Part shown: positions 3,395 to 32,000 of the stretch, in pieces | How the letters are laid out: each line of letters begins with the position of its first letter | How positions within the stretch are numbered: the first letter of the stretch is position 1 | From: Candidatus Saccharimonadota bacterium | Lineage (GTDB): Bacteria; Patescibacteriota; Gracilibacteria; BD1-5; UBA6164 | Length of the DNA stretch: 32,000 nucleotides | Direction: 5' to 3' | NCBI GenBank assembly: GCA_965227835.1 | Contig: OZ245768.1 | Coordinates: 630,001 to 662,000 of the forward strand | The notes under the pieces: model-generated | Database searches by the model: none | What the model saw: only the letters and a program-made list of their open reading frames with translations | What the model was told of the DNA's origin: nothing | Translations under genes and position numbers: made by a program

Positions 3395-3691
3395 ATGAAA
3401 CATAAAAGAGAAGCTGGAAACAGAAATAAACGAAGTGAAAGAACAATGCTTAGTATGATAAATTCATACTTTGGGTTATGTAAATCTGAAAAAAGAGCTT
3501 TACACAATTCACTAACAATAAAAACAAAAAAACTCGGTATTAGTATTCGTGCCTACCTAGAAAAAAATTATGAAAATATATGCAGATTACCTAAATCTCA
3601 TAAAAAATCGATTATAAGGGGAGATATGTTACCCGGCTGAAAAGGCTATAAAATTAACCGGTATCTTAAAAAGATACCGGTTTTTGTTTAG
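3395..3691 (+). CDS. Small basic hypothetical protein. It is 81 aa if TGA at 3638-3640 is a stop, and 98 aa if TGA is read as Gly.
   Basis: An AAGGAG Shine-Dalgarno site lies 9 nt upstream of the ATG. The 81 codons contain no internal TGA (5 Gly, none TGA). The first TGA sits 15 nt before a perfect intrinsic terminator. Under table 25 the frame continues through the hairpin to TAG at 3689-3691. Confidence 0.55.
3656..3686 (+). terminator. Rho-independent terminator
   Basis: aaccggtatc-ttaaaaa-gataccggtt, followed by ttttt. Confidence 0.8.
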
Positions 3692-6102: not shown

Positions 6103-6134
6103 AAAATTATTTTTAGGGACAAATTTTATAAAAT

Positions 6135-6178
6135 AAAAGAGTTTCTTTTCATAAATATGAAAAGAAACTCTTTTATTT
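6135..6178 (+). terminator. Rho-independent terminator of dnaK
   Basis: An 18-bp stem, aaaagagtttcttttcat / atgaaaagaaactctttt, followed by a T-rich tail. Confidence 0.8.
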
Positions 6179-6234
6179 GTGCATCCATTAGGAATATGCT
6201 ATAAAACATATATTGTTTTTAAGATATAATAAAT

Positions 6235-7321
6235 GGGCTAATACCAAAAATGTGTGCTAAAAAGGTATAGATTTTTTGCATTAAATAAGGAAGAAATAAG
6301 ATATATTTATGTAGTTTAAAAAATAAAATTTTATTATGCAAAAAAAACTGTCCCAAATGTCGTTGTATTTATATAAAAAAGAACTGAAAGAATAGTCAGT
6401 GAAAACAAAAATATAAATGTAAAAAATGTAATTTTTGTTTCGTTATCTCAACAAGAAAAACCCCAAGAATATATTGAGAAAAAATATTTCAAGATTGGAT
6501 TGAAGAATGATATTCATGTAGACAATTTTGAAAACAGAAATTAAAAAACAAAAAAGATATACTTAAAAATATTCAAAGTCATCTTGATTCAAACAAAATA
6601 TTTCAAATAGATCTTGTTTTTAAAAATATAAGTTATGTAATGATAGATGGAATATGGATTTCAAAAAATATATGTCTTATAATTTACTATGAATATATAC
6701 AAAAAAAAGTTATTCGTTTTGGTTTTTATAATTGAGAAAGATATGAGGATATACTAGAAGACTTAAGAATTCTTAAATATGAATTTAAATATAATATTTT
6801 GAGTTTTACTGTAGATTGAAGCAAACAAATAAAAAAAGCAATAGGAGAAATATATCCTAATGCAAAATTTCAGAGATGTTTAACACATATTCACAGACAA
6901 ATAACAAATTATATATCTAAAAAACCTCAAAGTGATTGTTGAAAAGATTTACAGAAAATAATGAATTTTAAAAACTTTGAAAATGAGAAAATTTTTACTG
7001 AATATTTCCAGAGTTGGGAGAGAAAATACTTTGATTTTTTAAAAGAGAAAAGTTCAAATTGAATAAGAACTTGGTATACTCATCGAAGACTCAGACAGGC
7101 GAAAAAACACATAAAAAATGCTCTTCCATATATGTTTCATTATATTAAAGATAAAAATATCAAAAGAAGTTCTAATGATTTAGAATGATATAATGGAGTT
7201 TTATCTAATCATATTTATTCTCACAGATGATTAAAAAAACATAGGATTATTTCTTTCATATCTCTTTGGATTTATAATAGAAATCTTAAGCAAAAATAGC
7301 ACACATTTTTGGTATTAGCCC
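6235..7321 (+). mobile_element. Insertion sequence (1087 bp) with perfect 25-bp terminal inverted repeats, IS1/IS1595-like
   Basis: gggctaataccaaaaatgtgtgcta at 6235-6259 matches the reverse complement of 7297-7321 exactly. One zinc-finger DDE transposase ORF lies inside. I could not see a target-site duplication. Confidence 0.85.
6319..7299 (+). CDS. Zinc-finger DDE transposase (IS1/IS1595-like). The open frame has no in-frame canonical start near its 5' end.
   Basis: Table-25 translation: ...CPKCRCIYIKKNGKNSQGKQKYKCKKCNFCF...VMIDGIW...FTVDGSKQ...SSNDLEGYNGVLSNHIYSHRGL. The only nearby ATG (6336-6338) is one frame off, across an A8 run at 6340-6347. The TAG stop at 7297-7299 is the first triplet of the right inverted repeat. 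Confidence 0.75.
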
Positions 7322-8800
7322 CAAAAAATTATAAAATGGTTCTAAATTTATTCATGTTCATTGAAATTCTATTTCATATTTACCTGAATTATTTTCAACG
7401 ATTTTCATATCAGGATATAGACATTTTAACCTTTCAATAGATACTCATACTTGATTATCTCTAACTAGAAAAGATTCTCCTCAATCATTTTCACGAATAG
7501 ATAATCTATCTCAAGTCTTAATTTCATCTATATCAATTACATTTTTATTTCTTGATAAATCTCTACTATTATTTTTATTTCTTTCATAGTTAATAGCAGG
7601 AATATCTTCTTCTCTTGCCAAAACTCACTTATGTAAAATCGAATTGCTATAAAAAGATTCATACTTTTTAGTAATTATTGCTTTAGTATTTGAAAATAAA
7701 TCGTTTTCTAATTCTGCTGACATATCAAACCATGATTTGGGTAATCAATTAGGAATCAGAAGTACATATCAATTAGGGTTATCTTTATTAAACTTAGAAA
7801 TTATATCAAACCAATTATTCATCAATTTATATTTAAATTGTGGAAATACTTTACTGAAAGAATTAGCCATTTTTATACGATTAGGAATATCATATATCTT
7901 ATTTCAACAAGGATCATGATGTGCTTTTAAAAATTCTTCTTCAATACTGTTTACTACCAAAACAGGTAAGTCCGTAAAAAATGCTGGACACCATTTATCT
8001 AATAAGCAAAGAATATCAGAATTCTCTTGAAGTTTTTCATTATCAGGATAATTTAAACTTCTCATTTGTACTACATGTATACTACCATCTTTTCAAATAA
8101 CATATTCAATAGCAATCCTACCATATTTTTTTTCTAATTTTTGAACAATTGAGAGTAACTTCTCTATATATTTTTCTTGATTATATGGCAATCCAGAATC
8201 ATATTGAATAACAGGGGTAATTTCATCATCTGATTTAAAACCAAGAGCATTACCACAATGTTCTTCTTGCATATGATTTCACCAAGCTATTGGCATATAT
8301 TTTTTTCCTTGAGGGCAACAGGAATGAATTGTTCAATATCAATTTTCTATTCATTCTACATATTCTTGTATAAGAATTCACATAGTATCTTGTATAGAGT
8401 ACTTTTTTCTATATTTTATAGCTTTTTCAGTATTATAAGAGTAATAAACATTCTTTATTCATGATAAAAAATTTTCAATAGTATCACATTTTATTTTTAT
8501 ACTTTGATAAACTCAGGTAAAAGAATGTCTTCAATCTTCTGCCATAGAATTTGAACGAATCATGATAGTCTTTCATTTGTATTTCTCAAAAAGTAAATCG
8601 TAATATGTTAATAATTTTTTTGATTCGCTTTTAACTATTCAATCAATTCTAAAAGAAAAAAAATCACTAGCTTCTTTTAGAAAGTCAGGATTTATTTCTT
8701 CGTATTTAGGTACTAGGAAGCCAAGATCTCTGGATTCTTGTAAGCAATTATATAGTCACCTAGCTTTACCCATAGTTGATTTTAATTCATGAATTTCCAT
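7286..8800 (-). CDS. PEP/pyruvate-binding (PPDK_N, ATP-grasp) domain protein, 504 aa. The 3' end is supplied by the IS.
   Basis: The N-terminal half, MGKARGLYNCLQESRDLGFLVPKYEEI...MIRSNSMAEDGRHSFTGVYQS...MGILIQEYVEG, matches the PEP synthase / PPDK N-terminal nucleotide-binding domain pattern (GGKA..L, RSSA.EED..SFAGQ). I did not recognise the C-terminal half. The last 12 codons plus the stop (7286-7321) lie inside the IS right end. Confidence 0.75.
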
Positions 8801-8840
8801 ATTTACTAAAATTAAATAATAATCCTCCTCCTAAAATCCT

Positions 8841-8923
8841 AAATTTTCACAAACGATTATAAATATAATTATATATTTGTCAAATTAACTTTATATATTC
8901 CCTTTTTATAGGTAATCAAGTAC
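8841..8923. repeat. Copy A of a duplicated promoter/upstream module of about 85 bp
   Basis: About 88% identical by eye to 10073-10154. It includes the -10, the -35 and about 40 bp upstream (ttatatattccctttttatag[g/c]taatcaagtac). Confidence 0.7.
8856..8883 (-). promoter_or_regulatory. Promoter TTGACA-16-TATAAT (minus strand) for the PPDK_N gene
   Basis: The -35 is the reverse complement of 8878-8883 and the -10 is the reverse complement of 8856-8861. Confidence 0.6.
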
Positions 8924-10072: not shown

Positions 10073-10154
10073 AAATTTTGCAAACGATTATAAGTATAAT
10101 AGTATATTTGTCAAATAAATTTTATATATTCCCTTTTTATAGCTAATCAAGTAC
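10073..10154. repeat. Copy B of the duplicated promoter/upstream module
   Basis: See 8841-8923. Confidence 0.7.
10087..10114 (-). promoter_or_regulatory. Promoter TTGACA-16-TATAAT (minus strand)
   Basis: The -35 is the reverse complement of 10109-10114 and the -10 is the reverse complement of 10087-10092. It is part of the duplicated module. Confidence 0.6.
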
Positions 10155-11240: not shown

Positions 11241-11774
11241 ATGAAAAAATTTAGCATAATATTTGCATGTGATAGTAAGAACTGAATATGAAAAAATGGA
11301 GACTTACCATGGTCAATTAAAGAAGATTTGAAATATTTTAAAAGTATCACAAGTAATTCTATAGAAGGCAAAAAAAATGCTTTGATAATGTGAATAAAAA
11401 CTTGGGAATCTATCCCTGAAATATATAAACCTTTATCAGAAAGAATAAATTGTATACTATCAAGAAGTCATAGTTTTGAAGATAAAAACTGAGAAGTTAG
11501 AAGATTTAGTAGTTTTGAATCTGCAATGCAAAATCTAAGTTTGGATGATGATATAAATAAAATATTTGTTGTAGGATGAGCTTATTTATATAACAAGGTA
11601 TTTCTTGATAAAAATCTAGAATATATATACAAGACGAATGTAGCAGGAGATTTTGGTTGTGATGTATTTGTAAATAATATACCAAAAGAATTTATTTTAG
11701 AAAAAAAATCTGAGATAAAAAACGAAAATGAGTTGGAATTCAATTTTGAAATATATAAAAAAACTCTTTCTTAA
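11241..11774 (+). CDS. folA: Dihydrofolate reductase, 177 aa
   Basis: MKKFSIIFACDSKNGIGKNGDLPWSIKEDLKYFKSIT...ALIMGIKTWESIP...VVGGAYLY. It lies immediately downstream of thyA. Confidence 0.9.
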
Positions 11775-11785
11775 AAAGAAAGAGT
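11763..11785 (-). terminator. Hairpin actctttctt/aagaaagagt. A U-run follows only on the minus strand.
   Basis: On the minus strand the stem is followed by ttttttt. On the plus strand it is followed by aaatcaag. It overlaps the folA stop codon. An identical copy lies at 12259-12281. Confidence 0.65.
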
Positions 11786-11863
11786 AAATCAAGTTTAAGT
11801 ATTCTTGTGTCTATATGTGATTTACAATGGCTACACTTTGGAAATCATATATAGATAAAACAA

Positions 11864-11953
11864 TTAACTTAGTGAAAATTGCCAGAACCTTTCTAAGGAA
11901 TAAACTTGAAAATCCCCCCTTTTTATTTGATAGTTCTCATTGACACCTATCAT
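11864..11953 (-). CDS. Candidate 29-aa small ORF (MIGVNENYQIKRGDFQVYSLERFWQFSLS), copy 1
   Basis: An AGGAG lies 6 nt upstream of the ATG. The ORF sits inside a promoter-to-terminator unit and is identical in both duplicate copies. It contains no TGA. It could equally be part of a noncoding RNA. Confidence 0.3.
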   Translation of the reverse strand: MIGVNENYQIKRGDFQVYSLERFWQFSLS

Positions 11954-12055
11954 CCTAGACTCCTAATGAATGGACTAAATCCAAGGTTGCTGGAAGTCTA
12001 GGCAGAAAAACTCAGAAGAGATAACTAAGCCGGAGTACCACAACAACCAATTTAA

Positions 12056-12083
12056 AATATAAAAATACATTGATTTTTGTCAA
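12056..12083 (-). promoter_or_regulatory. Promoter TTGACA-16-TATATT (minus strand) driving the repeat-encoded unit, copy 1
   Basis: The -35 is the reverse complement of 12078-12083 and the -10 is the reverse complement of 12056-12061. Confidence 0.55.
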
Positions 12084-12102
12084 ATAAATTTGGTTCAAAT
12101 TT

Positions 12103-12176: not shown

Positions 12177-12358
12177 ACATATTGTACATATGTACACGGA
12201 GAATGACTTAGAAAAAATCCAAGATGAGTTAAAATTCAATCTTGAAATATACAAAAAAACTCTTTCTTAAAAAGAAAGAGTAAGTCAAGTTTAAGGATTC
12301 TTATGTCTATATATGACTTACAATGGCTACGCTTTGGAAATCATAATAGATAAAACAA

Positions 12359-12448
12359 TTAACTTAGTGAAAATTGCCAGAACCTTTCTAAGGAATAAAC
12401 TTGAAAATCCCCCCTTTTTATTTGATAGTTCTCATTGACACCTATCAT
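12359..12448 (-). CDS. Candidate 29-aa small ORF, copy 2 (identical peptide)
   Basis: Same as 11864-11953. The terminator copy is at 12259-12281. Confidence 0.3.
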   Translation of the reverse strand: MIGVNENYQIKRGDFQVYSLERFWQFSLS

Positions 12449-12549
12449 CCTAGACTCCTTGACGGATTGGCTCAAAACCAGGGTTGTTGGGAATCTAGGA
12501 AGAAAAAACTCAGAAGAGATAACTAAGCAACAATCAACAACCTAACTAG

Positions 12550-12577
12550 AATATAGTAAAATATTAATTTTTGTCAA
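12550..12577 (-). promoter_or_regulatory. Promoter TTGACA-16-TATATT (minus strand), copy 2
   Basis: The -35 is the reverse complement of 12572-12577 and the -10 is the reverse complement of 12550-12555. Confidence 0.55.
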
Positions 12578-12585
12578 AAAAATTT

Positions 12586-15824: not shown

Positions 15825-16652
15825 ATGATTTTTGATACTCACTGCCATCCAAACCTAGCAATACAAAAAGATAAAACAGAAGTTATAAAAAACTTTTTGG
15901 AAGAAAATCCAAAAGGTTTTTTAAATATGATTTGAACAAATATAAAACAAAACATAGAAATATTAAAACTATCTAAAATATCTAATAGAATATATTGCTG
16001 TCTAGGCATACATCCTTGTGATTCTCTAAGATCCGATTTAAAAAAAGATACCTTAGAATTAGAAAAACAATTGATAGGAAACAAGGAAAAAGTAATTGGT
16101 ATTTGAGAATGTGGACTTGATTATTACTGGATTGAAAGAGAAATTTATGATTTATTATGAGATGAGTTAAAAGAAAAGAAACAAGAAAAAAAAGAAATTC
16201 AAAAAAAATTTTTTGAATCACAAATAGATTTAGCTTTAAAATATGATCTTCCTTTAGTCATTCATAATAGAGAATCAAAAGATGATATATTTGAAATTTT
16301 AGTAAAAAAAGATTTTAAAAACTTCGTATTTCATTGCTATAGTGAAGATTTAGAATTTGCAAAAAAATTGCTTGAATTTTCACCAAAATCTATGATAGGA
16401 TTTTCGTGAATTGCTACATTTAAAAATGCCTTAGAGATAAAAGAAACTGCCAAAAATATACCTTTAAAAAATATTATGATCGAAACAGATAGCCCTTATC
16501 TAACACCCTCACCTTTTAGATGAAAGCAAGAAAATGAACCTAAATTTGTAAAATATGTTTTAGAAGAAATTATAAATCTTAGAAATGAAGAACCAGAGGA
16601 AGTTAGAAAAGTTATCTTTGACAATAGTAAAAATTTTTTTAACCTAAAATAG
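15825..16652 (+). CDS. tatD: TatD-family metal-dependent hydrolase/DNase, 275 aa
   Basis: MIFDTHCHPN...IGIGECGLDYYW...LPLVIHNRES...FHCYSED...METDSPYLTP. Confidence 0.88.
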
Positions 16653-16680
16653 CTTAAAATACTTATATTAAATATAAAAA

Positions 16681-17490
16681 ATGAAAATAATATCATGGAA
16701 TGTAAATTGAATAAGAGCTGTTGCTAAAAAGTGATTTGTAGATTTTGTAGATTCTGAAAAACCTGATATATTGGCTATACAAGAAACAAAAGCTTTTGAA
16801 GAACAGTTTTTAAATGAAGTATGAAATCTAGAATGATATAAATATATATGGCATATTGGGGAAAGACCTTGATATGCTTGAACTGCTATTTTTTACAAAG
16901 AGGATTTAGATATGATAGAAGTAAAAAATAGATTTTGAGAAATAGAGTCATTTCACGAAGATTGAAGGTTAACACAAATTGAATTTTATTACAAGGATGA
17001 AAATTGAAATAAAAAAAATGTAGTTTTGATAAATTGATATTTCCCAAATTGATGAACTAGAGCTGATGGAACAGAAATGGTTAGTTATAAACTAAATTTT
17101 TACAATAAAATAATCAAATATACAAGAGATTTAAAGAAACAAGAGAAACAAGTAATAATAACATGAGATTTAAATATATGTCATAGAGAAATAGATATAG
17201 CAAGACCAAAAGAAAATGAGAATTCTATATGATTTCTACCGATAGAAAGAGAAAAAATATGAGAACTTATTGATGATTGAAACCTAGATGTGTATAGAAA
17301 TTTTTATCCAGATAAGAAAGATGTTTATTCTTGGTGGAGTTATAGAGCTGGGGCAAGACCTAGAAATATATGATGGAGAATTGATTATTTTTTAGTAAAC
17401 AGAGATTTTATACAATGTGTGGAGTGAATATATTATATGAATGAAGTAATGGGTAGTGATCATTGTCCAGTTAAACTGGAAATTAGGTAA
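16681..17490 (+). CDS. xth: Exodeoxyribonuclease III (AP endonuclease), 269 aa
   Basis: [19 protein letters not shown]...[10 protein letters not shown]...[14 protein letters not shown]...[23 protein letters not shown]...GSDHCPV. Confidence 0.92.
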
Positions 17491-17500
17491 GATTTAGTAT

Positions 17501-17535
17501 AAAAAATATGGTGATATTGCTATCACCATATTTTT
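17501..17535. terminator. Bidirectional intrinsic terminator between xth and the first cassette gene
   Basis: aaatatggtgata-ttgc-tatcaccatattt, with A-runs and T-runs on both sides. Confidence 0.75.
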
Positions 17536-17548
17536 AAAGAAGAATAGA

Positions 17549-17773
17549 CTATTCGCTAGGTGGTTTCAACATTGATTGCGAATATGAATAAACATAATAA
17601 CCAGGGGCAGGGCCAGAAAAAGGATCCACATATTCTTTATATTTATGTTTAACTTGATGTCCTCCCAAAAGAGAATAACCTTGACTTAATTTTTCATTGA
17701 CTGAATCTGAAAGTTCTTTTAAGCTTTTTCCAGTTACTATTACATATCTATCTTCTACCACTTTACCACACAT
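17549..17773 (-). CDS. Small DUF1737-like protein, 74 aa (cassette 1)
   Basis: MCGKVVEDRYVIVTGKSLKELSDSVNEKLSQGYSLLGGHQV... The pattern Y.vv...s..eL...Vn..l.qGy...GG is what I recall for DUF1737. An AAGGAG Shine-Dalgarno site is present. There are 7 Gly, none TGA. The stop is TAG. Confidence 0.7.
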   Translation of the reverse strand: MCGKVVEDRYVIVTGKSLKELSDSVNEKLSQGYSLLGGHQVKHKYKEYVDPFSGPAPGYYVYSYSQSMLKPPSE

Positions 17774-17855
17774 AATAAAATTACTCCTTGTTTTTTAAAA
17801 AAATTAACTTTTGTTTTGAAACTAAATAGTATAAAAACTATTTTGTTCAATAGTT

Positions 17856-17883
17856 ACTATAATTTATTTTTTAATTTTGTCAA
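17856..17883 (-). promoter_or_regulatory. Promoter TTGACA-16-TATAGT (minus strand) of cassette 1
   Basis: The -35 is the reverse complement of 17878-17883 and the -10 is the reverse complement of 17856-17861. Confidence 0.6.
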
Positions 17884-17961
17884 AAAATATTTTGACTTTT
17901 TTATATTTTAAAACTTAAAAGTTTGATTAAAATCGGCTAATATTTAAATAGTTTAAAAAAG

Positions 17962-17994
17962 AAAAACCGTCGGAATTTATTTCCGACGGTTTTT
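17962..17994. terminator. Palindromic intrinsic terminator (accgtcggaa/ttccgacggt) downstream of cassette 2
   Basis: A 10-bp GC-rich stem flanked by an A-run and a T-run. It could work in both orientations. Confidence 0.8.
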
Positions 17995-18029
17995 GTGTAG
18001 AATATTTTTTGGAAAATTTATAAAGTAGG

Positions 18030-18245
18030 TTATTTACTAGGTGGTTTCCACAATGTTTGTGATAATTGAGTTCCATAAAAATCACCTTCAGAACCGAGTT
18101 TACAAACACCATATCCTGAAATATTTTGTACTCCACCTGACGGAACATAGCCTTCTTGTATTTTCCGATCTACTTCCTCAATAAGCTCATTAAGTTTAGA
18201 TGAAGTTATCACTATGAAACTTTTTTCTACTACTTTACCACACAT
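18030..18245 (-). CDS. Small DUF1737-like protein, 71 aa (cassette 2, divergent paralog)
   Basis: MCGKVVEKSFIVITSSKLNELIEEVDRKIQEGYVPSGGVQN...LWKPPSK. It shares only the first 7 residues (MCGKVVE) and the last residues (KPPS) plus the core motif with cassette 1. There are 9 Gly, none TGA. Confidence 0.7.
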   Translation of the reverse strand: MCGKVVEKSFIVITSSKLNELIEEVDRKIQEGYVPSGGVQNISGYGVCKLGSEGDFYGTQLSQTLWKPPSK

Positions 18246-18328
18246 AATAAAATTACTCCTTGTTTTTTTAAAAAATTAACTTTTGTTTTGAAACTAAATA
18301 GTATAAATACTACTTTTGTTCAATAGTT

Positions 18329-18356
18329 ACTATAATTTATTTTTTAATTTTGTCAA
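18329..18356 (-). promoter_or_regulatory. Promoter TTGACA-16-TATAGT (minus strand) of cassette 2
   Basis: The -35 is the reverse complement of 18351-18356 and the -10 is the reverse complement of 18329-18334. Confidence 0.6.
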
Positions 18357-18433
18357 AAAATATTTTGACTTTTTTATATTTTAAAACTTAAAAGTTTGAT
18401 TAAAATCGGCTAATATTTAAATAGTTTAAAAAA

Positions 18434-18467
18434 GAAAAACCGTCGGAATTTATTTCCGACGGTTTTT
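18434..18467. terminator. Second copy of the palindromic terminator. It overlaps the 3' end of cassette 3.
   Basis: The same accgtcggaa/ttccgacggt hairpin. The TAA stop of the 102-aa ORF (18450-18452) lies in its loop. Confidence 0.8.
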
Positions 18468-18758
18468 GTGTAGAATATTTTTTGGAAAATTTATATTGTT
18501 AAGAATGTTCCAGAATTCTGTCAACTCCTCATCTGATAGAGGCATATGATTAGTAGACACTTCCTGAGGACTAGAGTCTACAGAGTTTTCTATATTTATA
18601 CCAATAGGACCTTCTTCCTGCATATAAATATAAGAATTGGTTTTAACAATTAATGCAAGGTGTTCCAGTTTAGAAACACATTGTAGAACTCCTCCAAATC
18701 TCATCATATAGGATAATTCTCGATTACCTGAAATTTTCCAAATTTTAATTTTATCCAA
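18450..18758 (-). CDS. Hypothetical protein, 102 aa (cassette 3), TTG start
   Basis: AGGAGG lies 6 nt upstream of TTG at 18758. There are 5 Gly, none TGA. The last 14 codons are contributed by the repeated module. I recognised no family. Confidence 0.6.
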   Translation of the reverse strand: MDKIKIWKISGNRELSYMMRFGGVLQCVSKLEHLALIVKTNSYIYMQEEGPIGINIENSVDSSPQEVSTNHMPLSDEELTEFWNILNNINFPKNILHKNRRK

Positions 18759-18847
18759 TTTAAACCTCCTAAGGTCTTAAAAAAAAGATATTAACTATAC
18801 TTTACCATTTAAGCTAAAAAATAACATAAAAGTAAAATATATTAGAT

Positions 18848-18875
18848 ATTATAATACAATAAATTATTTTGTCAA
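18848..18875 (-). promoter_or_regulatory. Promoter TTGACA-16-TATAAT (minus strand) of cassette 3
   Basis: The -35 is the reverse complement of 18870-18875 and the -10 is the reverse complement of 18848-18853. Confidence 0.6.
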
Positions 18876-19138
18876 AAAATATTTCTCAAAACTACCCACT
18901 TTTTATAAAAAACTTATCTAGCTTTTACTTTAAATAAAAGAATAATGAACCATTTTTAGTTTTTTATTTTATATATTTCATAAATTAATTATTTAAGCTA
19001 ATTTTATCTTTATAAAATTCAATCAATATAAAGCCTCTGTTTTTACTTATATAAAGGTAAAAAATTAACTATAAAATACAAAAAATTGGATAGATTTGTA
19101 ATATTTTCTTTTTTATATTTTAAAACTTAAAAAGTAAA

Positions 19139-31271: not shown

Positions 31272-32000
31272 TTATTTCCTCACAAATCCACCATGAAATC
31301 CTGCTGTTATTCTAACTGGAAAATATGCTGAAAATTCTTCTTTAAAATTTTTAGCATTAAGCCCAAGTAAAAAGTTTTTCTCTTTTTTTTCATCAAACCC
31401 ATAACACAATAAAATTCCATCATCTTCACTTTTAGAATTTTTATTTTCTACAAAAACTGGTTCTCCAAAATAACAATGTTTTTTTGTAAAAATTAATGAT
31501 TTTTTATGTTCTATTACATCAAGTTTTACTATGTTTTTAAAAATATCATTTCCTTTTATATTTCTTTTCAAGTTCCCAATTCCATACACAAATCTATGTT
31601 TTTTATTTACATATTTCTCATTTATTCTTTGAAGCTCACAAGTATAATCTGATATTTTTTCTTCTTTAACTAATCCACTTTTTAAGTTCATAAAATATCT
31701 CATGTATTTTGGTGGATAAATTGAAACTCCTCCTTTTTTTAAATTTTCTATCATAAAATCTTTTAAAATTTGTGCATTTTCAAAAACTGGAAGTTCAAGT
31801 GTAATTGTATCATTTTCTTCATAGGCATTTGTTGTGTGAAAAAAGAAAAAAGGATTTACTTTAAATGATTTAACTTTTTCACCATTTGATTTTTTAATAA
31901 TATGAATTTTTGTTTTCATAAAATTTCCAAACCATTTTATATTTTGAAAAAATGAGAAAGGCAAAAAAACAACTGCTGCTGGAAATAATAATTTATAGGG
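31272..32000 (-). CDS. Carotenoid oxygenase (RPE65/CCD family) C-terminal part. Partial: the 5' end runs off the window.
   Basis: FFFHTTNAYEEND...RFVYG...YFGEPVFV...EDDGILLCYGFD...FPVRITAGFHGGFV matches the family pattern (H.fNAyE, E.R.d, GEP.FvP, eDDG.ll, lP.r.P.GFHG.w). The frame stays open to 32000. There are about 15 Gly in 243 codons, none encoded by TGA. Confidence 0.8.
   Translation of the reverse strand, partial: PYKLLFPAAVVFLPFSFFQNIKWFGNFMKTKIHIIKKSNGEKVKSFKVNPFFFFHTTNAYEENDTITLELPVFENAQILKDFMIENLKKGGVSIYPPKYMRYFMNLKSGLVKEEKISDYTCELQRINEKYVNKKHRFVYGIGNLKRNIKGNDIFKNIVKLDVIEHKKSLIFTKKHCYFGEPVFVENKNSKSEDDGILLCYGFDEKKEKNFLLGLNAKNFKEEFSAYFPVRITAGFHGGFVRK

Follow-up and report, generated by a model that had tools for sequence, protein, structure and literature searches.

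Three TGA-free small-gene cassettes with Shine-Dalgarno sites form a strain-variable island in a Gracilibacteria genome that reads TGA as glycine

The stretch analysed here (the window), 32,000 nucleotides (nt) at positions 630,001 to 662,000 of contig OZ245768.1 (assembly GCA_965227835.1), carries a three-gene island that fills the 1.65-kb gap between the 3' end of xth (plus strand, 17490) and the 3' end of a Na+/H+ exchanger gene (minus strand, 19139). Its minus-strand open reading frames (ORFs), ORF74, ORF71 and ORF102, encode proteins of 74, 71 and 102 amino acids (aa), each behind a consensus promoter and a strong Shine-Dalgarno site, just as the initial annotation of this DNA had described. 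In none of them is glycine encoded by TGA, the codon that native genes of this genome use for most of their glycines, and one of the three units is missing from a sister strain. A phage 'moron', in the concept of Hendrix and colleagues, is an autonomous promoter-gene-terminator unit inserted between genes. We consider it probable, though by no means certain, that the locus is a strain-variable island of moron-like cassettes, which came from a TGA-avoiding phage or mobile gene pool compatible with genetic code 11 and were shaped by duplication and allele replacement.

Judging from the translations of the window, the source genome has a code-25-type genetic code, in which TGA is read as glycine. 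Translated with table 11, the window (GC content 24.2%) retains only 15 stop-to-stop ORFs of at least 100 aa; translated with table 25, it yields an ordinary gene map with DnaK, ThyA, DHFR, UvrC, TatD, Xth, the Na+/H+ exchanger, DnaJ and others. Glycine of E. coli DnaK is aligned with TGA at 13 of 17 sites, including the invariant motifs GIDLGTT and DLGGGTFD. Every one of the Xth homologues is named Candidatus Gracilibacteria. The neighbours of the island in the window are xth, tatD, uvrC and the exchanger gene.

TGA accounts for none of the 21 glycine codons of the three ORFs, compared with 319 of 499 (64%) in 24 native genes of the window (binomial P 5e-10). The initial annotation had likewise counted none in 21, and its estimate that native genes use TGA for about half of their glycines proved too low. 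As TGA is present 11 times out of frame within the three ORFs, its avoidance is frame-specific, and gene size is not the cause, since native genes of 84-96 aa contain TGA. High expression was also considered as a cause and rejected, DnaK, DnaJ and GrpE being heavy users of TGA. The three ORFs end in TAG, TAA and TAA, and another TAA follows in frame after 4-8 codons. Transposase genes in the window use TGA, as native genes do.

The absence of TGA is coupled to a distinct initiation signal. Not one of 22 native genes of the window has even a 4-nt Shine-Dalgarno match ahead of its start codon; their start codons lie in plain A/T-rich leaders. The comparison covered the called genes of the window and of eight further loci, i.e. 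that of the sister strain (L001, an independent ENA assembly, ~97% identical overall), those of three genera with 71-73% Xth identity (L002-L004) and four more distant ones (L011-L014). The 141 TGA-using genes in this sample have no real Shine-Dalgarno site (a weak 4-mer match was seen in two), whereas all six TGA-free genes have one, which gives a two-by-two table of 6/0 and 2/139 (P ~2e-9; P 1.5e-8 in an earlier table with fewer genes). The TGA-free genes of L001, L002 and L003 (Table 1) each possess their own TTGAC-type promoter or GC-rich hairpin terminator, and the 135-aa and 106-aa ORFs of L002 and L003 are unrelated and without a detectable homologue. The pairing of the two features across loci indicates that the three cassettes belong to a small, recurrent gene class, whose expression signals are unlike those of the host genome. 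We did not find this pairing described in the literature searched, a search that was not exhaustive. Three of these cassette proteins, the island's included, begin with MC or MIC.

Read from the sequence alone, the anatomy of the island (Table 1) is that of morons, with an own promoter and terminator around a single gene. The proposal that each gene has its own terminator needs some qualification. There are indeed three hairpins (z-scores of -6.4, -6.4 and -8.1), but ORF102 does not have a private terminator region, because its last 14 codons lie inside the duplicated repeat and its stop codon falls in the hairpin loop; the hairpins behind ORF71 and ORF102 are identical in sequence. The palindrome over the -35 hexamer is present in both copies of the repeat (R_A and R_B) and in the intact ORF102 promoter of L001. 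With such signals the cassettes would be expected to be expressed. A higher local GC content, noted earlier, was not confirmed, as the island has 24.3% against 24.2% for the window, and only the ORF bodies are richer (31-34%).

Table 1. Features of the island and TGA-free genes of related loci. Positions are those of the window unless a locus is named; a point marks features given without a strand.
Feature	Position	Strand	Basis or remarks
Putative tract of different ancestry: last ~15 xth codons, terminator, ORF74 body, unit A 5' untranslated region (5'UTR)	17443..17841	-	divergence step
Bidirectional hairpin terminator 3' of ORF74, also behind xth	17502..17535	.	fold -17.2 kcal/mol, z -8.1; conserved in L001
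ORF74, 74 aa, distantly DUF1737-like	17549..17773	-	translation, profile search; 7 GGN, no TGA
Repeat R_A: fragment of the last 14 codons of ORF102, terminator, motif, promoter, 5'UTR, codons 1-7	17753..18022	-	
Shine-Dalgarno site AAGGAG, 10 nt ahead of the ORF74 ATG	17784..17789	-	sequence
Promoter A, TTGACA-16-TATAGT	17856..17883	-	sigma-70 consensus 11/12
Palindrome GTCAAAA-TATT-TTTTGAC over the -35 hexamer, candidate operator	17879..17896	-	read from sequence
26-nt A/T-rich motif, copy 1, abutting the -35 region	17896..17921	.	motif count; no RNA structure
Terminator hairpin behind ORF71, within R_A	17962..17994	-	-19.8 kcal/mol, z -6.4
Duplication junction	18023..18029	-	three-way comparison of window, L001 and unit A
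ORF71, 71 aa, distantly DUF1737-like	18030..18245	-	translation, profile search; 9 GGN, no TGA
Repeat R_B	18225..18495	-	identical to the single R of L001
Shine-Dalgarno site AAGGAG of ORF71	18256..18261	-	sequence
Promoter B, TTGACA-16-TATAGT	18329..18356	-	sigma-70 consensus 11/12
26-nt motif, copy 2	18369..18394	.	motif count
Terminator hairpin behind ORF102, ORF102 stop codon in the loop	18435..18467	-	-19.8 kcal/mol, z -6.4
ORF102, 102 aa, TTG start	18450..18758	-	translation; 5 GGN, no TGA
Shine-Dalgarno site AGGAGG of ORF102	18765..18770	-	sequence
Promoter C, TTGACA-16-TATAAT	18848..18875	-	sigma-70 consensus 12/12
213-bp MITE-like insertion	18886..19098	.	absent from the L001 site
26-nt motif, copy 3, 1 mismatch, just past the exchanger stop codon	19108..19133	.	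motif count
TGA-free gene, 101 aa	L001 17740-18045		0 TGA, 8 GGN, Shine-Dalgarno site
TGA-free gene, 135 aa	L002 659-1066		0 TGA, 3 GGN, Shine-Dalgarno site
TGA-free gene, 106 aa	L003 7561-7881		0 TGA, 5 GGN, Shine-Dalgarno site

The two repeats are even more alike than the ~97% over 250 bp first reported. Positions 17841-18022 and 18314-18495 are 100% identical across 182 nt, and beyond that stretch, up to codon 7, 3 substitutions and 1 indel bring the repeat to ~98.5% across 270 nt (4 differences). The proteins behind the repeats share 36-38% identity; at the nucleotide level, ORF74 and ORF71 are 95% identical in codons 1-7, 52% in codons 8-66 and 79% in the last 8 codons. The claim that the ORF bodies are far more diverged than the non-coding flanks (52% against ~98.5% for the module) therefore stands. 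A comparison of dN and dS (nonsynonymous and synonymous divergence) in codons 8-66 gave 0.78 versus 0.73, values near saturation and little informative.

The 26-nt A/T-rich motif occurs three times in the window, with none expected by chance. It had been described as a 25-bp sequence that recurs three times and seems to mark the cassette borders; the recurrence is real, the border role is not. In each intact copy the motif holds a fixed position directly upstream of the -35 hexamer, and neither the duplication junctions nor the repeat edges coincide with it. The motif is probably a promoter-upstream (UP-like) element and, together with the palindrome, may include an operator.

In L001 the order is exchanger stop, motif, promoter, ORF102, terminator, motif, promoter, ORF71, terminator and xth. 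The 473-bp ORF74 unit is missing, and ORF71 carries one amino acid change. The single R of L001 shows no difference from R_B of the window in 279 nt, whereas R_A has 4 differences from R_B, all of them 3' of ~17841, i.e. downstream of the transcription start. The window retains, behind the stop codon of ORF71, ~11 nt homologous to the normal 3' flank (TAACCTACTTT, stop codon included) and then switches into the last 45 nt of ORF102. The joining of an ancestral 3' flank to a fragment of the ORF102 3' end points to a tandem duplication or unequal crossover.

A second discontinuity lies within xth. The window and L001 differ at 4 positions in ~840 nt (16600-17440), mostly xth, and by ~12% from 17443 on, the raised divergence extending through the end of xth and the terminator. 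This step, together with the location of the R_A differences, suggests that ORF74 lies in a tract of ~400 bp of different ancestry, the edges of which would be near 17443 and 17841. The odd combination of diverged ORFs with conserved flanks is thus explained by mosaic ancestry, i.e. by duplication and homologous recombination. A recent sweep, to which the low strain divergence of the ORF102-R-ORF71 segment (0.8%) might have pointed, was dropped, as divergence between the strains is mosaic everywhere. In the next relatives, at 71-73% Xth identity, the syntenic loci show another gene order and no homologues of the three ORFs.

The third motif copy owes its odd place to a transposable element. 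L001 has the motif directly next to the ORF102 promoter, in the architecture seen in the repeat, and lacks the 213-bp element at this site. In the window this element, which has 11-nt terminal inverted repeats (TCAAAACTACC / GGATAGATTTG) and a target duplication of ~AATATTT, inserted between the ORF102 promoter and its upstream element; it parts motif 3 from promoter C and has destroyed the left palindrome arm. By these sequence features it is a miniature inverted-repeat transposable element (MITE). A copy with 87.5% identity is found elsewhere in L001 (17497-17710), with GCAAGAAC on either side as an 8-bp direct repeat. In both strains the MITE adjoins a TGA-free cassette, at the ORF102 promoter in the window and at the 101-aa ORF in L001. 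The L001 copy belongs to a variable segment: window positions ~6109-8922 hold a Mutator/IS256-like transposase and a PPDK_N-like gene, and their counterpart, L001 17441-18172, holds the MITE copy and the TGA-free 101-aa ORF with its Shine-Dalgarno site and own hairpin terminator.

Among ~15 billion proteins ORF74 has no other occurrence, and ORF71 occurs in the source genome and L001 only. The DUF1737-like label given to both from the outset is acceptable as a statement of remote homology by profile, but both scores for PF08410 (DUF1737), 20.4 bits (E 4.8e-4) for ORF74 and 12.4 bits (E 0.15) for ORF71, lie under the gathering threshold of 24 bits. A profile of the two sequences retrieved 28 weak matches (E 5e-6 to 1e-3, 49-133 aa) from 1.84 billion representatives, and PF08410 is matched by 19 of the 27 members of an alignment of ORF74, ORF71 and 25 hits. 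The family shares the pattern YIVV..L.EL...VN.KI..GY.P.GG, a variable loop and QAM.K; the stretch most divergent between ORF74 and ORF71 is the length-variable stretch of the entire family. An AlphaFold2 model computed with the family alignment (mean predicted local distance difference test score, pLDDT, 91.5) has a beta-alpha-beta-beta-beta topology. Its best structural matches are uncharacterised phage and giant-virus proteins (E ~7e-4, TM-score 0.6-0.7), with annotated DUF1737 proteins among the matches at E 0.04-0.05; there is no solved DUF1737 chain for sequence comparison. Matches in the PDB to Alba and ribosomal protein S10-like structures were weak (E 0.013 or worse) and were not used. 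Two homologues could be located, in short contigs dense with small same-strand genes, one of which has weak phage-family matches.

Cryo-electron microscopy has identified the DUF1737 N-terminal domain of phi24B gp84/NanS-p as a hexameric, hexon-binding capsid-decoration domain, in which residues 2-57 were resolved as one helix on a small antiparallel sheet; most proteins with DUF1737 consist of that one domain (bioRxiv 10.64898/2026.04.10.717836). ORF74 and ORF71 have in common with DUF1737, most members of which are 50-80 aa long and found in phages, the signature and, going by the model, possibly a small helix-plus-antiparallel-sheet domain. They differ from it in a lineage-specific MCGKVVE N-terminus, a KPPS C-terminus and the absence of a capsid gene nearby. 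Profile and model together suggest that ORF74 and ORF71 are distant, deeply diverged relatives of the DUF1737 fold. ORF102 has no homologue in 5.8 billion proteins, and its single-sequence AlphaFold2 model is poor (pLDDT 54). A PADLOC search for defence families gave no match. By analogy, and with low confidence, we propose that the cassettes might encode small phage-derived capsid-interacting proteins, either leftovers or agents of interference with superinfecting phage.

According to the explanation that we favour, three autonomous units, each composed of a sigma-70-type promoter, the A/T-rich motif, the palindrome, a Shine-Dalgarno site, a small ORF and a hairpin terminator, would have been imported from the TGA-avoiding, code-11-compatible phage or mobile gene pool known for Gracilibacteria. 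A 473-bp tandem duplication or unequal crossover would have generated the near-identical modules, and the transcribed part of the distal copy (~17443-17841) would then have been swapped by homologous recombination for a divergent allele, ORF74. Duplication and allele exchange could have taken place in the reverse order, and an unequal exchange with DNA of a lineage carrying the ORF74 allele would be an equivalent history. A phage origin and some such order of events seem plausible on the following grounds. Saturation in place (dS ~0.7) should have yielded TGA, because GGA to TGA is one synonymous step and the genome stands at 64% TGA. Its absence from all 16 glycine codons of ORF74 and ORF71 implies that they diverged where TGA was not a sense codon, or that selection removes TGA.

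In passages of Liu et al. (2023, PMC10746230), in-frame TGA is missing from 34 of the 38 phages predicted for Gracilibacteria, which are thereby code-11-compatible, so the initial view that no such system has been described was too strong; an AT-rich donor would fit these phages. The same passages present integrated prophages of Gracilibacteria hosts as TGA-rich, hence TGA-free chromosomal cassettes are not simply another instance of that case, and Shine-Dalgarno usage is not discussed in them. The earlier suggestion of a phage- or plasmid-derived insert that is readable under either code is supported by the lack of in-frame TGA, the TAA and TAG stops, the Shine-Dalgarno sites, the phage-associated fold and the variability between strains.

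Several observations weigh against such an origin. In the 32-kb window, the island is not flanked by a phage hallmark gene, an integrase or an att-like repeat, and IMG/VR, GTDB representatives and JGI metagenomes yielded no phage or other contig that carries exactly these genes or the module. Membership of ORF74 and ORF71 in DUF1737 remains under the Pfam cut-off. The codon use of ORF102 is atypical (p<0.001), but the GC content at third codon positions (GC3) of ORF74 and ORF71 is 0.15-0.17 and their non-glycine codon use is near host-like (p=0.14 and 0.04), so either the donor was equally AT-rich or TGA avoidance is actively selected. Divergence between the strains varies in a mosaic fashion throughout (0-11% per 300 nt), and databases hold only two genomes of the species, so that the ORF74 unit may have been either gained or lost and the tract edges are approximate.

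Searches for the module elsewhere gave little. Scans of IMG/VR with DNA patterns of the module found no match, the proteins and the module had no match in IMG/VR and INPHARED beyond a weak DUF1737 hit (E 0.3), and Rfam had no match in the window. Relatives of ORF74 and ORF71 were likewise sought in GTDB representative genomes, IMG/VR and JGI metagenome contigs, without success. A 23-nt promoter/palindrome pattern matched three unrelated contigs and was judged a generic strong-promoter sequence, hence uninformative. Its matches included a Gracilibacterium of 36% GC, upstream of a normal TGA-using gene, and an organism of 42% GC, in which we take the ORF downstream, from its translation, to be dsrC/tusE-like; this match was uninformative as well.

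The same data can be read in other ways. ORF74 and ORF71 might be old tandem paralogues formed in situ, the ORF bodies having diversified or become relaxed while gene conversion maintained the promoter, 5'UTR and codons 1-7, and L001 having lost a copy between conserved 3' ends. We regard this as unlikely, although several points speak for it: dN is close to dS, the 3' ends of the ORFs share a 12-nt identical block (GAAACCACCTAG), the ORF71 3' flank of L001 resembles that of unit A, and the variable stretch is the variable loop of the whole family. Paralogues diverging in this genome should, however, have acquired TGA at some of their 16 glycines, given the 64% background. Moreover, the R of L001 matches R_B exactly but differs from R_A, which speaks against recent homogenisation of the 5'UTR; the divergence step at 17443 does not fit, and the deletion would need a crossover in 4 nt (AATA) and not in the 12-nt block. 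A role for selection is improbable to a greater degree. Small autonomous genes with Shine-Dalgarno sites would here stay TGA-free by selection, and not by recent arrival, so as to remain translatable when decoding of TGA as glycine is off (for instance once an infecting standard-code phage has brought back termination at TGA, or in a standard-code partner cell), and the DUF1737 pair would represent two anti-phage capsid-binding specificities under diversifying selection. In favour of this reading, TGA absence goes with Shine-Dalgarno sites without exception in several genera of Gracilibacteria, and code-11-compatible Gracilibacteria phages exist (in passages of PMC10746230). ORF74 and ORF71 resemble the host in GC3 and codon use, and an RPE65 fragment in the window (see below) does so fully in codon use, yet all three are free of TGA. 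An AT-rich, TGA-avoiding donor accounts for the composition equally well, however; the search for defence families gave no match, and the cassettes of different genomes are unrelated genes without homologues, as random imports would look.

A dedicated cassette-exchange or site-specific recombination system (integron-like or shufflon-like), with the 26-nt motif as its recombination site, is very improbable. Three copies of the motif where none is expected, and different ORFs behind near-identical modules, might suggest it, and the initial annotation had done so. This idea found no support: the motif keeps a fixed distance from the -35 hexamer, its third copy having been moved by the MITE, the repeat edges and the difference from L001 are not at the motif, each cassette has its own promoter, and neither an integron-type integrase nor a reverse transcriptase or invertase is encoded in the window. 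Reuse of a module before different ORFs is also not unique to the island, as an 82-nt promoter module is reused before unrelated genes elsewhere in the window. Equally hard to credit is an assembly artefact that strung ORF71-type and ORF74-type strain haplotypes in tandem. A 182-nt perfect repeat can mislead short-read assemblers, and ORF74 has been seen in one genome only; but the junction, in which AAATAACCTACTT is directly followed by TATAAATTTTCC, is foreign to either haplotype, which makes a chimera unlikely, the source contig is a 1.49-Mb assembly, and the independent assembly L001 confirms the rest of the locus.

Other parts of the window and of the sampled loci bear on these subjects. 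The 82-nt module (89% identical, with a perfect TTGACA-16-TATAAT promoter) is found at 8842-8923 and 10073-10154 and precedes unrelated minus-strand genes for a PPDK_N-like protein of 504 aa and an unknown protein of 279 aa. A tandem duplication of ~495 bp (11717-12091 and 12213-12585, reaching to 12585; 90-100% identity), common to the window and L001, consists of copies that each carry, on the minus strand, a TTGACA-16-TATATT promoter, a hairpin terminator and a 29-aa ORF, free of TGA and with a Shine-Dalgarno site (MIGVNENYQIKRGDFQVYSLERFWQFSLS). These ORFs sit in predicted transcripts of ~330 nt with long untranslated regions and no Rfam match, and the DHFR gene extends with its 3' end into the first copy; the two may be paired genes for a small protein or an RNA.

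The C-terminal part of an RPE65/carotenoid-oxygenase gene (31275-32000, minus strand; Pfam E 4e-48), the start of which lies beyond the window, contains 14 GGN codons and not a single TGA (chance ~6e-7). In the rest of its codon use it is fully native-like, hence recent import alone is hard to accept for this gene. A 98-aa ORF at 3395-3688 (plus strand), which adjoins an rve-type transposase gene, has an AAAGGAG Shine-Dalgarno site, 1 TGA against 6 GGN codons and atypical codon use (p=0.005), and may be a partly adapted member of the class.

The gene order around xth also varies. It follows grpE in six of the seven sampled loci (L002-L004, L011, L012 and L014), L013 being arranged differently again, and it heads a uvrC-tatD block in L002-L004 and L012; in the window, xth (16678-17490) comes after tatD. 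Where the window has the island, L003 has, between tatD and the exchanger gene, a 195-aa gene without a match in the window. In L002 and L004, the gene that comes after tatD in this place encodes 199 aa; these loci stop short of the exchanger gene.

Stop-codon reassignment is thought to be a barrier to gene flow, and the locus shows what can pass it, i.e. short TGA-free genes that bring their own signals. The combination of TGA absence with a Shine-Dalgarno site may offer an easy way to recognise imported or phage-derived genes of code-25 genomes by sequence, and it prompts the question of whether ribosomes whose native genes lack Shine-Dalgarno sites still initiate at them. Furthermore, the island constitutes a worked example of how duplication, homologous allele replacement and MITE insertion can together mimic a 'cassette system'.

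Several known systems resemble the island in part. It shares with integron cassettes an array of small ORFs with a recurring sequence between them, but it has neither intI nor attC-like sites, each cassette has its own promoter, and the repeat edges are off the motif. As to diversity-generating retroelements, there is no reverse transcriptase among the scanned ORFs of the window, and ~48% of sites, besides indels, separate the two ORF bodies. Replacement of alleles between conserved flanks is known from hypervariable loci, for example pherotype or specificity loci such as agr and comC, where homologous recombination takes place in the flanks. The island shows a similarly sharp switch from near-identical flanks to very divergent coding sequence. 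Unlike at agr- or comC-type loci, both alleles stand here in tandem in one genome, and the case is known from two genomes.

With the phage genes in the passages of Liu et al. (2023, PMC10746230) the island has in common the lack of in-frame TGA, TAA or TAG stops, a close second stop and the same host lineage, the difference being that it consists of chromosomal single cassettes without phage hallmark genes. It departs from morons in lying outside a recognisable prophage, with housekeeping neighbours (xth and the Na+/H+ exchanger gene), and in a contrast that concerns genetic code and Shine-Dalgarno usage and not GC content. Like morons, however, the island ORFs have their own promoter, ribosome-binding site and intrinsic terminator, sit between unrelated genes and vary between strains, and they stand out, as TGA-free cassettes with Shine-Dalgarno sites, from TGA-rich neighbours that have neither property.

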